DNA of 64,000 nt from an uncultured Candidatus Poseidoniales archaeon (GTDB taxonomy: Archaea > Thermoplasmatota > Poseidoniia > Poseidoniales > Thalassarchaeaceae): positions 11,649-75,648 of the forward strand of contig CACGIM010000002.1 in the NCBI GenBank assembly GCA_902573115.1. Direction: 5' to 3'. The number at the start of each line of letters is the position of its first letter. Position 1 is the first letter of the stretch. The notes under the pieces were generated by a model. That model had not been told where the DNA came from. It saw nothing but the letters and a program-made list of their open reading frames with translations, and searched no databases. The position numbers and the translations under genes are program-made. Shown piece by piece: positions 29,796-34,877 of the stretch.

Positions 29796-32700
29796 ATGGG
29801 CGCACGCAGAGCTGTGTATGCTTCGACGATACTACTCATCCTCATAGCGCCATTAAGCTCCTCTTCCATTCATCAAGAGCAAGATCGAATTGGGGGATTT
29901 GATGCAGATGGCGTTTGGTCCCCTAGCGTAGAGCTGGAGATCCACAGAGAATGGTGGACAGAATGGAGCAGAGATAAGGATCACAACGCACTAGACGATC
30001 GTCTGGAGTGGCTCATTGAACAACCAGGGGAAATCCAAAGAAATTGGTGGAAAAGGGCTCCAGATGGAAGTGCAAGAGTTTTCGTGGATTATGATCATCA
30101 TCCAACAGATGCGGATATTTACGCTTTGGAGTCTATTGGGGTGAAAGTGACCCACCGATTCGAGTACCTTGACACGGTTTCGGCTTCGGCACCATTCGAT
30201 ATAATCGTCAGGGAAGATGGGATTAGATCCCTATCAGGGGTAGTGATGATTGAGGATCTAGGTCTTGCAGAAACAAATATGCATGAAGCGAATCCAAACA
30301 TGGGAGTAGACTCGGTTTGGCAGGATCTGGGGTTAGATGGAACGGGCTCTGTGATCGCAGTATTGGATACTGGAGTTAGGGGGGATCATGAAGGTCTAAA
30401 TGACATGGATGACGATCCATTTACCTGCATAGATGATCCTCCCGAGCCTGATCCTCTTGACCCCGAACCTGAACCAATTCCTTCAGACTGTGACCCTAAA
30501 ATCATAGCTTTCTTTGACGCGGTTATAACCGACGAGGAACAGGATCCCTCGACGTCTTATGATTCGGGTACACATGGGACTCACGTAGCTGGAATAGCGG
30601 CTGGTTCTGGGGGAGGGCAAAGTGACTCAAGTACAGGTCTTAGGTACGTTGGGGCAGCTCCTGGCGCGTATCTGATCAATATCTTGGGATGTTGCGATGG
30701 TGACATAGAAGATGTAATGCAAGGAGCGGAATGGGCAATAAACAACAAAGACAAGTATGGTATCGATATCGTAACGTCTTCTCTTGGCGAGCAGCAATTA
30801 GAATTGCATCTCGATAACGACGGAAATTCCGCTTGGAGTCGTCAGATGGACATGGTCGTGGAGGCGGGAATTATCACGACCTTGTCTGCTGGTAACGAGT
30901 TTGGAGGTGCGACTCTCGCGGGATGCAACACAATAGATAGTCCCGGAGATGCGAGGCTGCCAGTCACGGTAGCAAGTTTGGATAAGAATCTAGGTTTAGC
31001 CATATACAGTAGTAGGGGGTATACCTCCGATCTTAGGGTAAAACCTGATGTTGCGACAATCGGATCCAATATAATGGCCCCAGATGCGGCGACCCAAGAT
31101 GGTTACACAAGTAAGTCAGGCACCAGTATGGCCACCCCATTAATGGCAGGAATCGCTGCTCTGATGGTTCAGGCAAATCCCGATTTAACCCCTTCCGAGT
31201 TCAAGGATATTATCTCAGCCCACGCAATAGAGCGAGAAATTCAGCTACTTAATGACCCTGGATTTAATGATTGCAGCATATTAGAAAGTCGTCCGGATAA
31301 CGAGTTCGGCTATGGGCAAGCAGACCCCACTGCCTTCGTCGAAGCGGCCGGAAGCATTGATCGTTCACTCAATGTTTCTATGGATGTGAATACTCTAGAA
31401 CAAATTGGTAATGAAAGCTATGTTACTGGCACATCCTCCGGAGCCGCACCTGGAACTGGTAGCGTCGAGGTTAAGGTAGGAGGGGGAGAGTGGTTTGTAG
31501 CAGCTGACCTATCGATAAATGGGGACTGGTCATCGTGGAGCATCAAATTGGATCCTCATGAAAAATCGGGGAACTCCACCATTTACGCAAGACTAGCGGT
31601 TTCTGAAGACAGTGTGTCACCAGTTGACGCTCGCAGGGTTGTGTTGGTCGATGCGCAAGCAACCGGAAGCTCATCCTCGCCTGGTGGATTGGTGAATTTA
31701 GGCCCTATTACATTCTTCATTCCATTCATTGTTGCAATTGTTTTGGTTGTCTTCATTGGAAGGAAAGAGGCGTGGACGTTCGATCAGGAAGATTCTGACA
31801 AAGACGATTCGAAAATGTCCTCGGCCGATTTGGAAAAGTCAGACTATCAGACTATCATTGAAAGGTTCTCTAATGGTTTCAAAGAGCTGGGCAAGGGTGG
31901 CACGATAACTGATAACTCAGTGAAGAGGGTACTGACTCTTTGTGTTCTGTATTTTGCACAGGGACTTCCTTCTGGATTCGCCATAGTTACCTTTGCAGCT
32001 TACCTAGTCTCAAACGGAGTCTCAGTCCCAGAGATAGCTATTCTATTTGCAACCGTGTCTCTCCCTTGGACATTCAAGTGGATTTGGGGGCCGCTAGTTG
32101 ATTCAGTGTATGTGGAAAGGTACGGCCCCAGAAGACAGTGGATTCTATTCGCACAAACAGGGATGGCCATATCACTGGGCTCCCTATTGCTGGTCTCTGA
32201 TTTGAATGGGCAAATAGATCTTGTTGCGAGGATTCTGTTCATTCACAACATTTTCGCATCGATGCAGGATGTCGCTACGGACGCTCTAGCTGTTGAGGTT
32301 TTGCAGCCTGATGAGGTCGCCAGAGTAAATGGACTCATGTTCGCTGCAAAGAGGGTCGGGATTATCTTCGGAGGTGCCGTTTTGGGTGTACTGATATCGA
32401 AGATTGGTATCTCTGGAGTCATTGCAGCTCAGTTAGTAATGCTAGCGATTATTATTGTCGTGCCACTAACTATGGTGGAAAAGGAAGGTGTGAAGCTTTT
32501 CCCATGGTCCAAATCACATGAAGGGCTTGATTCATCTGAAGATCGAGCTGATTCGGAGGCGTTGATCGCAGAAGTTGTAGATGAGTCGGATCTATCTCCC
32601 TGGGAAGAGGAGGATGAGTTTAGAGTTGCTAGAACAGTCGGATTTAGTATAGCTGAAGACTCTGTTTCCTTCGCTTCATTCTTCGCAATTCTTGGAATCT

Positions 32701-33671
32701 CGATTTGGCTCTTTGGATTCGTAATTGACGTTTTTACAGTGGATTGGACCTTCGGAAAACATGTGAGAGAAGGGTTTCCCGCACTGGAAGGCAAGAAAAT
32801 CCTAGGGCTGGATATTTTGCCGTGGTCTGGAACCAATAGAGTCAGTTTAGCATTAATCTTGCTTTCAGTCTTCTCGGTAGTTTACTCAAGATTCTCTGAC
32901 TCGGAACAAAGTGCATCATTACCCAACCCCTTCCTTTTGCTACCAGAGTCTAGTAGAATAACGATTGCCAGAACTTCATTCTACCTCACCAAGGCCTTCT
33001 CGGTAAGGTCTGCTTTCCTACTTGTTATTGCTGGCTTGCTTGGAGAGCTGTATTATTTCACTAGCCCAATTTACGTTGATATATTCATCAACGAGGCTGG
33101 GTGGTCACAAGAGAAGTATAATGGGATTGTGGGGGGTATAGCGCTGCTAGGTTCCGTTACTGGACAAATAATTGGAGGGATTCTCGGGGACAAGTTCGGG
33201 ATTCGCAGAGTTGCGATGGTGTCATTTGTGGTTCTCGCTCTTGCAAACGCTACTTTTGCATTCCTAGAGCCTTTCTGGGGCAATACGATCATTATGACTG
33301 TCTATCTCATTGGACAGTATTTTGTAGCGGGCATAGCCTTAATTTGCATAATTTCTCTTTGTATGAGATTGACATGGAGCAAAGTAGGCGGAACTCAATT
33401 TACTGCCTACATGTCCATACTGAACACTTCGGTAGTATTCGCATACACATTAACTGAGAGGATGATTTCGATATTCAACTATACCTCTGCAATATACATC
33501 GGAGCTGCACTTACACTGGTGACTACATTCTTCCTCTTCTTCATTGATGAGAATGAGACTGACAGAGTATTGGAGGGAAGAGATACAGGAGAGGATGAGA
33601 TAGATGATCTGGGAGAGTCTGTTTGGTTGAAAAAGGAGCAAGGGGGAGAGAATCCTGTCACGTCTTCATGA
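29796..33671 (+). CDS. Fusion protein: secreted S8 subtilase domain, a single TM anchor, and a C-terminal AmpG-like MFS transporter domain of 12-14 TM
   Basis: Signal peptide. S8 triad motifs AVLDTGV, HGTHVAG and GTSMATP. The TM is PITFFIPFIVAIVLVVFIG. MFS signature LPWTFKWIWGPLVD plus 12-14 TM. One uninterrupted 1291-codon frame. Confidence 0.7.
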   Translation: MGARRAVYASTILLILIAPLSSSSIHQEQDRIGGFDADGVWSPSVELEIHREWWTEWSRDKDHNALDDRLEWLIEQPGEIQRNWWKRAPDGSARVFVDYDHHPTDADIYALESIGVKVTHRFEYLDTVSASAPFDIIVREDGIRSLSGVVMIEDLGLAETNMHEANPNMGVDSVWQDLGLDGTGSVIAVLDTGVRGDHEGLNDMDDDPFTCIDDPPEPDPLDPEPEPIPSDCDPKIIAFFDAVITDEEQDPSTSYDSGTHGTHVAGIAAGSGGGQSDSSTGLRYVGAAPGAYLINILGCCDGDIEDVMQGAEWAINNKDKYGIDIVTSSLGEQQLELHLDNDGNSAWSRQMDMVVEAGIITTLSAGNEFGGATLAGCNTIDSPGDARLPVTVASLDKNLGLAIYSSRGYTSDLRVKPDVATIGSNIMAPDAATQDGYTSKSGTSMATPLMAGIAALMVQANPDLTPSEFKDIISAHAIEREIQLLNDPGFNDCSILESRPDNEFGYGQADPTAFVEAAGSIDRSLNVSMDVNTLEQIGNESYVTGTSSGAAPGTGSVEVKVGGGEWFVAADLSINGDWSSWSIKLDPHEKSGNSTIYARLAVSEDSVSPVDARRVVLVDAQATGSSSSPGGLVNLGPITFFIPFIVAIVLVVFIGRKEAWTFDQEDSDKDDSKMSSADLEKSDYQTIIERFSNGFKELGKGGTITDNSVKRVLTLCVLYFAQGLPSGFAIVTFAAYLVSNGVSVPEIAILFATVSLPWTFKWIWGPLVDSVYVERYGPRRQWILFAQTGMAISLGSLLLVSDLNGQIDLVARILFIHNIFASMQDVATDALAVEVLQPDEVARVNGLMFAAKRVGIIFGGAVLGVLISKIGISGVIAAQLVMLAIIIVVPLTMVEKEGVKLFPWSKSHEGLDSSEDRADSEALIAEVVDESDLSPWEEEDEFRVARTVGFSIAEDSVSFASFFAILGISIWLFGFVIDVFTVDWTFGKHVREGFPALEGKKILGLDILPWSGTNRVSLALILLSVFSVVYSRFSDSEQSASLPNPFLLLPESSRITIARTSFYLTKAFSVRSAFLLVIAGLLGELYYFTSPIYVDIFINEAGWSQEKYNGIVGGIALLGSVTGQIIGGILGDKFGIRRVAMVSFVVLALANATFAFLEPFWGNTIIMTVYLIGQYFVAGIALICIISLCMRLTWSKVGGTQFTAYMSILNTSVVFAYTLTERMISIFNYTSAIYIGAALTLVTTFFLFFIDENETDRVLEGRDTGEDEIDDLGESVWLKKEQGGENPVTSS

Positions 33672-33921
33672 GATCATCGGAGGCGCCGATCGGGATTTCC
33701 TTGTCTTCACTCAGACCATATGTCCCTATTGCACGAGGGCTTTCAGAACCCTTGATTCGAAGGGGTTTAGTTACATCGAGGTAAATCTTGACAGCTTTGA
33801 TGGATTGAGAAAGGAGGTAGTTGCTGTGACAGGTCACAGAACGGTCCCAGTTGTCTTCGATATGAGAGGCGAAGAACCGGTCTTTGTAGGGGGCTCGGAC
33901 CATTTAATCGAATACGTCTAG
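33670..33921 (+). CDS. Glutaredoxin-like ORF (CPYC active site) with no ATG/GTG/TTG start. Expression is uncertain.
   Basis: Frame +1 relative to the upstream gene translates to ...DFLVFTQTICPYCTRAF...TVPVVF...GGSDHLIEYV*. The frame is open from 33631 and contains no canonical start before CPYC. Confidence 0.45.
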   Translation, partial: EIIGGADRDFLVFTQTICPYCTRAFRTLDSKGFSYIEVNLDSFDGLRKEVVAVTGHRTVPVVFDMRGEEPVFVGGSDHLIEYV

Positions 33922-34877
33922 AGGCTCCATGATTCCGTTATCCCACCTGCAATCATGATCCTCAAGAATGTAGATCCTCCTGTGAATGTAGCTGTCAGAG
34001 TGTACTCTTCTGAGGGAGATGGAATAGTACCTAGAGTCCCTATCTCACTGGCCCCTGGACCCCATACCCTCTCAAGAGCGGAAACTGACAAGTGGTCCCG
34101 TAGAGTCATAGTTATCGTGGATCCCGCGCCACTTTCTGCATCAAGGAAGTAAATCATCTCATCCCAGCCACCGTCGGAGGGATGGTCACTGACCAGGAAG
34201 GTATCCCTAAATTCAAAGTCTGTTCCAGTATCTTCCCAAGTATTGCTAAACCAGTCTCCACCCCTTACGAAGTATACATCCCCCGTGTGCCCTTCCCCCC
34301 TATCTGACAGCATCATTCTGAGATTATCTATGCCCGATTGATCCTTCCAAACAAACGTGGAGAAGAATCCCGCTTCACTATCAAAAACATAGTCCAATCT
34401 TGAGCCATCATTAGATGTTGCGAATACTGTGACTATACCTCCATTCAAATCCGAGACAATCGCTTCCCACTCGACAGAAAATAGGGTAAATGACCATGAG
34501 TTTCCTTCCTCTAATGGAAATTTGAGAACTGTTTGGGGCTCTCCGTTCTCAAATGCACTTAGATCGGTGTGGGTGATCCTCCCAAGAAACGGGTTGTGAT
34601 TCAATACTGCATGCCTCCTTGCCTCTGTTAAGCTGGAGATTGCCAGCATATATGCCGTACCATCCTCTTCACTCGTACTGGCAACTACAAGCCTAGTTGT
34701 GTCATCACTAAATTCAGGCGTAGAGAAGGTGTATAGCCACCAGTCTCCAACTTCCCAAGATGGAACATCAATAGGTCCCTGATCGCCTCTTTTTTCTGTA
34801 TCGGAACCACTAACACAACCTGACAAACAGGAAGCTAGCAAAACAATGAGAGTAGCAACTGCTCCGCCTTTCATCAT
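33918..34877 (-). CDS. Secreted lipoprotein, function unknown
   Basis: Signal peptide with lipobox LSGC, acidic, about 319 aa. Confidence 0.45.
   Translation of the reverse strand: MMKGGAVATLIVLLASCLSGCVSGSDTEKRGDQGPIDVPSWEVGDWWLYTFSTPEFSDDTTRLVVASTSEEDGTAYMLAISSLTEARRHAVLNHNPFLGRITHTDLSAFENGEPQTVLKFPLEEGNSWSFTLFSVEWEAIVSDLNGGIVTVFATSNDGSRLDYVFDSEAGFFSTFVWKDQSGIDNLRMMLSDRGEGHTGDVYFVRGGDWFSNTWEDTGTDFEFRDTFLVSDHPSDGGWDEMIYFLDAESGAGSTITMTLRDHLSVSALERVWGPGASEIGTLGTIPSPSEEYTLTATFTGGSTFLRIMIAGGITESWSL

Follow-up and report, generated by a model that had tools for sequence, protein, structure and literature searches.

Where does a gene begin when its reading frame opens without a start codon? The question is raised by a glutaredoxin (Grx) locus in a stretch of 64,000 nucleotides (nt) from an uncultured Candidatus Poseidoniales archaeon of marine group II, family Thalassarchaeaceae (contig CACGIM010000002.1 of assembly GCA_902573115.1, positions 11,649 to 75,648), which we term the window, its first letter being position 1. 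A first-pass annotation, made from the letters alone, described there an intact Grx frame with no start codon and offered three explanations: a third domain of a fused protein lost through an indel, a programmed +1 frameshift, or a non-canonical start. Comparison with relatives points to another answer. The gene has its start, an ATG at 33604, but a premature stop at codon 9 separates it from the body, and this stop is a natural allele, segregating in the population. On balance we take the allele to be recent, and null or strongly hypomorphic for Grx. The argument turns on the following elements.

33588-33598, + strand: Shine-Dalgarno (SD)-like motif GGAGAGGATGA, read from the sequence, with GGAG and GAGG
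33604-33630, + strand: what is left of the Grx 5' end, ATG I W E S L F G, then TGA; start of the 105-codon gene in the closest relatives
33628-33630, + strand: premature stop TGA (G to T at 33628); seven aligned relatives have G, and T is found in 20 further contigs
33631-33921, + strand: Grx body, intact; 96 sense codons plus TAG, with CPYC, TVP and GGSD

The glutaredoxin body and its start codon

The body of the gene is an uninterrupted run of frame +1 on the forward strand (33631-33918, 96 sense codons), closed by a TAG at 33919-33921. Its translation reads KRSKGERILSRLHEIIGGADRDFLVFTQTICPYCTRAF...HRTVPVVF...VGGSDHLIEYV and contains the CPYC motif (33721-33732), the cis-proline motif TVP (33841-33849) and the GG-D glutathione-binding motif, here GGSD (33889-33900). 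The Pfam Glutaredoxin profile PF00462 scores it at 54.5 bits against a gathering cut-off of 22.9 (E = 1.3e-14), so that the intact CPYC/TVP/GG.D frame ending at 33921, as originally described, stands. Its best solved match is Grx3 of Escherichia coli (GrxC; PDB 1FOV, 3GRX; E = 2.2e-08), and the alignment to these structures begins at residue 34 of the 105-amino-acid (aa) form, just before strand beta1. The NCBIfam equivalog profiles for GrxC leave the protein under their cut-offs (46.3 vs 90 for TIGR02181, 42.8 vs 129 for NF007923), and its similarity to the Uxx-star family NF041212 is weak (40.5 bits vs a cut-off of 66). Judged from its sequence, the protein adds one more member to the class I dithiol (CPYC) glutaredoxins. 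With E. coli Grx3 it shares the thioredoxin-fold core, CPYC, TVP and GG-D; it differs from it in that the clade of the window has an N-terminal extension of about 30 residues, the first part of which is a by-product of the overlap with the upstream gene. Unlike class I dithiol glutaredoxins generally, the allele of the window has its body severed from its own start codon. A search limited to the 64-kb window found no second Grx or Trx there.

Upstream of the body, the Grx frame is spelled TAG (33601-33603), ATG (33604), ATC TGG GAG AGT CTG TTT GGT, TGA (33628-33630), which gives, with stops as asterisks, *MIWESLFG*KRSKGERIL. The closest database proteins (P0001-P0005, 87-97% identity) are 105 aa long and begin MIW[EG]SLFGGKRSKGERIL... 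or MIW[EG]SLFGGKRSKGERILSRLHEII...; in the nearest relatives the start of Grx is the ATG equivalent to 33604, and a GGA codon (Gly9) stands where the window has TGA. The lesion is thus a G to T change at 33628, which turns the glycine codon 9, GGA, into TGA. The SD-like motif GGAGAGGATGA lies 5 nt 5' of the ATG and probably serves as its Shine-Dalgarno sequence; a 5-nt SD core precedes 14 of the 56 open reading frame (ORF) starts in the window, against a background of 8%.

Between the TGA and beta1 the window holds no ATG, GTG or TTG. The first-pass annotation was right in this respect, as it was in noting CTG 33655 and a G5 tract at 33642-33646. Its statement that there is no start codon holds for the body; the ATG at 33604, upstream of the TGA, had escaped it. 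All 47 related loci that we collected have a canonical start in frame with the Grx domain, and the window has none. The clade of the window is exposed to such a stop because the ATG at codon -31 (counted from beta1) is its sole canonical start.

A substitution in a separate gene

Over the junction, alignment of the window with seven close-relative contigs is gapless: T at 33628 is present in the window alone, and all others have G. Longer alignments are gapless as well (L048, 1608 nt at 96.8%; L049, 5559 nt at 99.0%; L050, 1151 nt at 97.0%), and none of the 29 close contigs aligned shows a gap across the junction. In the nearest relatives the G5 tract is just as long. Upstream of Grx lies a long gene, with which the frame was said from the outset to overlap, and indeed does.

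29796-33671, + strand: fusion of S8 subtilase and MFS transporter, 1291 aa; stop TGA 33669-33671

In each of the 47 related loci, one or more ATG, GTG or TTG codons follow the last in-frame stop ahead of beta1; in the same comparison the window alone had none. In none of them is the Grx frame open for more than 88 codons upstream, and the upstream ORF, which spans 1233-1321 codons in the loci that cover it in full, never shares the frame of Grx. A fused third domain, lost from view through a single-base indel or a frameshift in the G5 tract, is therefore ruled out by the gapless alignments and the equal length of the tract, as is any fusion of Grx to the subtilase-MFS gene, since no relative is fused and the frames always differ. 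The comparison of orthologous loci that the earlier reading had called for thus returned 47 separately started genes and no fused one. Nor does its scenario of a simple sequencing error fit, as the relatives carry no extra base and the lesion is a substitution that recurs in 20 other contigs. We conclude from these alignments that Grx is a separately translated gene, with an ancestral form of 105 codons counted from the equivalent of ATG 33604.

Could TGA mean something else than stop in this organism? In the window it is the commonest terminator, closing 28 of the 56 long ORFs. These ORFs cover 95.7% of the sequence with no other broken gene, and the sole unusually large gap between long ORFs on this stretch is the Grx locus itself. 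TGA is a genuine stop in this genome. The junction has neither a selenocysteine insertion sequence (SECIS) nor any other Rfam element, and no unusually stable RNA structure (fold z-score -1.15); no tRNA gene was found in the window. Recoding as selenocysteine was considered and rejected because the TGA aligns with glycine (GGA in the relatives), not with cysteine, and there is no SECIS. The selenoproteins of the Uxx-star family (NF041212) resemble the window in being Grx-fold proteins with an in-frame TGA; unlike them, where UGA stands at the first active-site cysteine, the window has its UGA at Gly9, far from a CPYC that is intact.

A nonsense allele in a natural population

The evidence for the TGA allele consists of assembled contigs. 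These were reached by two routes, the tail protein of the subtilase-MFS gene (P0121) and the cluster of an 81-aa ORF antisense to Grx; a scan of metagenome DNA with a pattern open to either G or T at 33628 yielded one contig, which bears GGA. Three further features enter here.

33585-33735 (roughly), + strand: divergent haplotype patch bearing the TGA; common to other TGA contigs, with differing flanks
33630-33634, + strand: A5 run, created by G to A at 33633; functional meaning speculative
33658-33903, - strand: antisense 81-aa shadow ORF, not a gene; no Pfam match, one cluster

P0121, the tail of which ends ...VWLKKEPGGENPVTSS, led to a contig with the same TGA, and members of the antisense cluster with the marker residues of the window led to 21 more contigs. 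In all, 20 other contigs have TGA at codon 9; they come from 20 sample accessions (several ENA assemblies, TARA, JGI, Logan and three NCBI assemblies). Six close contigs have GGA there. Of the contigs obtained from this population about one third bear the TGA allele, a rough and biased figure. Retrieval of the carriers required that their antisense product match exactly, and they are bound to be alike across 33661-33903; there may also be accessions that re-assemble overlapping data, and coverage is low in many contigs.

The allele sits in a patch of sequence with a history of its own. Compared with the GGA-bearing L049, the window has no mismatch in 373 positions of the left flank, 12 in the 151 of the patch and none in the 186 of the right flank. 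Compared with L050 the picture is inverted, with 3 mismatches of 167 in the patch and 13 of 373 in the flank, and the flank of L050 matches that of L048, which bears GGA. Flank type and junction type occur in all four combinations, and at least three flanking backgrounds are represented among the TGA carriers. An apparent excess of changes private to the window in Grx dissolved once L049 and L050 placed these changes in the shared haplotype. The TGA haplotype has two changes of its own, G to T at 33628 and G to A at 33633. The latter is synonymous in Grx, replaces Glu by Lys in the subtilase-MFS tail and makes the A5 run. Within the Grx body, of the peptides LHEIIGGADR and DFLVFTQTICPYCTR, the GG variant marks the TGA-linked haplotype; it is also present in rare GGA recombinants (L068, L070). 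These mixed backgrounds reflect recombination in the population or, in part, strain-chimeric assemblies; the haplotype is a natural one either way.

That the feature is an artefact of sequencing or assembly, a wrong, lost or gained base, has become an almost negligible proposition. In its favour we may note that database look-ups did not retrieve the contig of the window itself, an exact look-up of its 319-aa and 1291-aa proteins finding no record. Against this, the same T is present in 20 other contigs from different samples and assemblers, all alignments are gapless and the rest of the window is cleanly coding. Because this T is shared within a multi-site haplotype on several backgrounds, an error of base calling is excluded. 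The contigs thus identify the TGA as a naturally segregating allele, a nonsense polymorphism at the population level.

The ATG at 33604 and the SD-like motif are kept in 19 of the 20 carrier contigs. L065 has ACG in place of the ATG, a singleton observation on a short contig of about 1.8x coverage; L061, also a singleton on a short contig, has a TAG at codon 104. These defects could be first signs of decay or simply errors. As a phenomenon this is a known kind of thing and not a new kind of system. It resembles segregating nonsense alleles and young unitary pseudogenes, with one disabling substitution close to the 5' end, an otherwise perfect ORF and coexisting intact alleles. It differs from typical nonsense alleles in being frequent, in lying on several recombinant backgrounds, in affecting a gene conserved across the order and in showing no secondary decay.

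The overlapping gene and the turnover of glutaredoxin starts

The upstream gene encodes a recognizable peptidase and a recognizable transporter (Pfam Peptidase_S8, 1.2e-44; MFS_1, 3.7e-27). Its last 68 nt overlap the ancestral Grx gene, which lies in its +1 frame, and in 44 of the 47 loci its TGA stands exactly 28 nt before the beta1 codon of Grx. The cytoplasmic tail encoded there carries a conserved motif, D-L-G-E-S-x-W-W-x-x-E-x-G-G-x-x-P-V-A, retained even in lineages that have stops in the Grx frame at this place; over the first part of the overlap, then, it is the tail frame on which selection acts. The N-terminal extension of Grx is a passenger of that frame, useful only for supplying a start. 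In the tail, the base change at 33628 converts TGG to TTG and replaces by leucine the second tryptophan of the WW pair. Three other lineages also have leucine at that site, so that the Grx stop could be a by-product of selection or drift in the transporter tail.

Grx itself is conserved at this locus in 40 Poseidoniales genomes, mostly at 65-91% aa identity to the Grx of the window, and at 46-54% in the four most distant. Its start has shifted again and again, and is found at codons -31, -30, -28, -22 to -19, -17, -16, -13 or -11 from beta1, depending on the relative. L020 has a stop at the same column as the window, followed by two ATGs, and stops in the extension do no harm where a downstream start exists. 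In L010 the usual ATG at -22 is ATA (about 1435-1504), which leaves only a GTG at -11, 3 nt before the upstream stop; L025 has nothing but a TTG at -13, and L032 nothing but a GTG at -16. Seen across these loci, the position of the Grx start turns over unusually fast within the order.

Such an arrangement brings to mind gene pairs coupled by termination and reinitiation (Huber et al. 2019, PMC6728339; PMC10666635), as Grx overlaps the 3' end of an upstream gene the stop of which is fixed in position order-wide. The overlap here is 68 nt, unlike that of coupled pairs, where coupling works at 4, 1 or 8 nt (PMC10666635). The ATG at 33604 stands 65 nt before the stop at 33669, outside the range of a 1-8 nt overlap or a distance within about 14 nt (PMC10666635). 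Coupling could operate only in the lineages that start at GTG -11 or, hypothetically, at ATC 33673 in the window.

What becomes of glutaredoxin in carriers of the stop

Ribosomes that start at ATG 33604 would meet UGA after eight codons, with the octapeptide MIWESLFG as their only product. With no canonical restart between the TGA and the catalytic domain in this clade, the output of Grx would be lost or much reduced, and any residual protein would come from inefficient near-cognate initiation or from read-through of UGA. That the downstream ORF looks perfect is explained, we propose, by the youth of the lesion and by free recombination of the locus with intact alleles. Known efficiencies are in keeping with such an outcome. 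In E. coli, near-cognate codons reach about 0.1-3% of the initiation obtained with AUG (bioRxiv 10.1101/063800). Reinitiation past a stop in Haloferax declines by 40-60% when the distance is 13-14 nt, and at about 22 nt none is left (PMC10666635); ATC 33652 and CTG 33655 lie 21 and 24 nt past the TGA. We therefore regard it as probable, by a modest margin, that the TGA allele is recent and null or strongly hypomorphic, its effect on expression being deduced from the sequence.

Several observations weigh against this reading. Grx is strongly conserved throughout the order (40 genomes), so a null allele should be costly; yet the allele is common, and on several backgrounds. No TGA carrier has a frameshift or a further internal stop, save for the singleton of L061 at codon 104. 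Among carriers, the non-singleton polymorphisms that affect only Grx are three synonymous and one non-synonymous, the latter at the variable last residue. Conservation, frequency, intact ORFs and this ratio of changes would fit continued translation, for which they speak weakly: recombination lets carriers share their variants with intact alleles, and the way in which the carriers were collected was biased. Signs of decay among the 20 carriers amount to singleton defects with no indels, in a biased sample where the polymorphism counts are few. For this reason we did not rely on these counts, nor on a stretch of zero diversity at 33672-33845, as marks of purifying selection or of a sweep; the exact antisense identity demanded at retrieval forces similarity there, which makes the stretch unreadable as a sweep.

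If the null reading is wrong, how might carriers still make the protein? The sequence past the TGA offers two pairs of codons.

33652-33657, + strand: near-cognate ATC and CTG, at -15 and -14 from beta1; GGAG upstream; candidate weak restart sites
33673-33678, + strand: ATC ATC, at -8 and -7 from beta1; they begin 1 and 4 nt after the subtilase-MFS stop

Useful amounts of Grx might arise from a non-canonical start past the TGA, either SD-assisted at ATC 33652 or CTG 33655, or by termination and reinitiation at ATC 33673 or 33676, and the TGA would then be nearly neutral. We think this unlikely, while granting that it has several points to commend it. Other lineages can do without the N-terminal extension, their starts ranging from -31 to -11 and stops in the extension being accompanied by a downstream start; a start anywhere from -15 to -7 would still give the whole Grx domain, and some relatives do have an ATG right after the upstream stop (L046 at -8; L014, L016 and L023 at -7). 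GGAG motifs (33635-33638 and 33645-33648) precede ATC 33652 and CTG 33655, and the ATC at 33673 suits a process that is efficient only at very short distances between stop and start (PMC10666635). The frequency of the allele and the intact ORF of its carriers count on the same side. On the other side stand the low efficiency of near-cognate codons cited above and the literature, in which we found no archaeal precedent for such near-cognate initiation. Moreover, the same ATC, CTG and GGAG are present in relatives that use ATG, so that nothing here has evolved for restart, and no SD-like motif lies upstream of 33673 or 33676. Conservation of CTG 33655, which might have been taken as evidence of a start, was rejected as such: Pro-Val in the subtilase-MFS frame together with Leu in the Grx frame forces the letters C-T-G.

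Initiation at codons other than AUG, GUG and UUG does exist, the AUU of E. coli infC being an example. The window resembles such cases in that ATC and CTG with GGAG upstream are its only possible in-frame restarts. It differs from them in that the use of these codons is hypothetical and that they are not specific to the TGA allele.

Read-through of the UGA at 33628 (context UGA-A) from ATG 33604 would supply full-length Grx. UGA is generally the leakiest stop codon, and basal read-through is usually 1% or less. For this route one may count the retention of start codon and SD-like motif in 19 of 20 carriers, and the unimportance for function of residue 9, the extension being a passenger of the overlapping frame. 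Against it we count that TGA is the commonest bona fide stop of the window, that the Rfam comparison and fold z-score given above reveal no read-through element or structure, and that L065, admittedly a low-coverage contig, has also lost its ATG. We hold this route to be improbable.

Still less probable, to the point of being far-fetched, is the idea that ribosomes in the subtilase-MFS frame slip by +1 on the A5 run (UUG AAA AAG G, 33627-33636) and so fuse the transporter to Grx. From AAA 33630-33632 the tRNA-Lys could move, with perfect pairing, to AAA 33631-33633 in the Grx frame, and it could do so in the TGA haplotype only; the G to A change at 33633, 5 nt from the TGA mutation, is specific to that haplotype. 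The codon in the A site of the 0 frame is AAG (Lys), however, and no slow or stop codon is there to favour a slip; neither the Rfam search nor the fold z-score points to a known element or a stimulatory structure; no relative is fused or without a start of its own, and the GGA relatives lack the A5 run. Five A's are also far below the lengths known to cause ribosomes to slide. A slip at this place would bring the ribosome into the Grx frame one codon beyond the TGA. Judged by the features that define programmed +1 frameshifts of the prfB, Ty1 or antizyme type, the locus is not one of them, and the slip-compatible A5 sequence is probably a coincidence.

The overall proposition that the TGA allele still yields functional Grx, by efficient initiation at a codon other than AUG, GUG or UUG or, less likely, by read-through or by a fusion through the A5 slip, is one that we consider doubtful.

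Neighbouring genes and the annotation of the locus

Downstream, Grx converges with a gene on the opposite strand.

33918-34877, - strand: conserved 319-aa neighbour; no Pfam family

The two genes have zero intergenic bases, the Grx stop (TAG 33919-33921, + strand) and the stop of the 319-aa gene (33918-33920, - strand) sharing the palindrome CTAG. The 319-aa protein has a hydrophobic start followed by the cysteine-containing LLASCLSGC, which gives it the look of a lipoprotein. In the window and in L043 its gene stands between Grx and a gene for an H+-pyrophosphatase; L044 and L046 have the Grx/319-aa pair, and their contigs end short of an identifiable pyrophosphatase gene. On the other side of Grx, the fusion of a secreted-type S8 subtilase to an MFS transporter of the 12-transmembrane class (about 1240-1320 codons) is kept beside Grx in at least 25 marine group II genomes. 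This protease-transporter fusion and its fixed pairing with Grx may merit a separate study.

The antisense ORF at 33658-33903 had been suspected from the start to be a shadow of Grx, and the suspicion was justified. Among 5.8 billion proteins its product belongs to a single 90% cluster (P0174), which is a single species-level cluster; it comprises 14 distinct sequences on about 38 contigs (NCBI, JGI, ENA, Logan, TARA), deposited as hypothetical protein. On the related contigs where the ORF is called (L049, 4868-5113) it has no Pfam match. The Grx frame on the opposite strand is conserved across Poseidoniales. The confinement of antisense homologues to one species-level cluster thus marks the ORF as a shadow of Grx. 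On L049 it is called although Grx is intact there, likely because the 68-nt overlap on the same strand exceeds what Prodigal allows, the limit being 60 nt.

Meaning of the allele for Poseidoniales

Probably as a consequence of this layout, gene callers miss Grx and report instead an antisense hypothetical protein of 81 aa. For the biology, the point is a common premature stop in a conserved redox gene of a globally sampled archaeal population. Either Grx is dispensable for part of this population, or translation restarts without a canonical start codon. Should the latter prove true, continued synthesis of Grx from the TGA allele would be a case of natural non-canonical translation in an uncultured archaeon, brought to light by population data.

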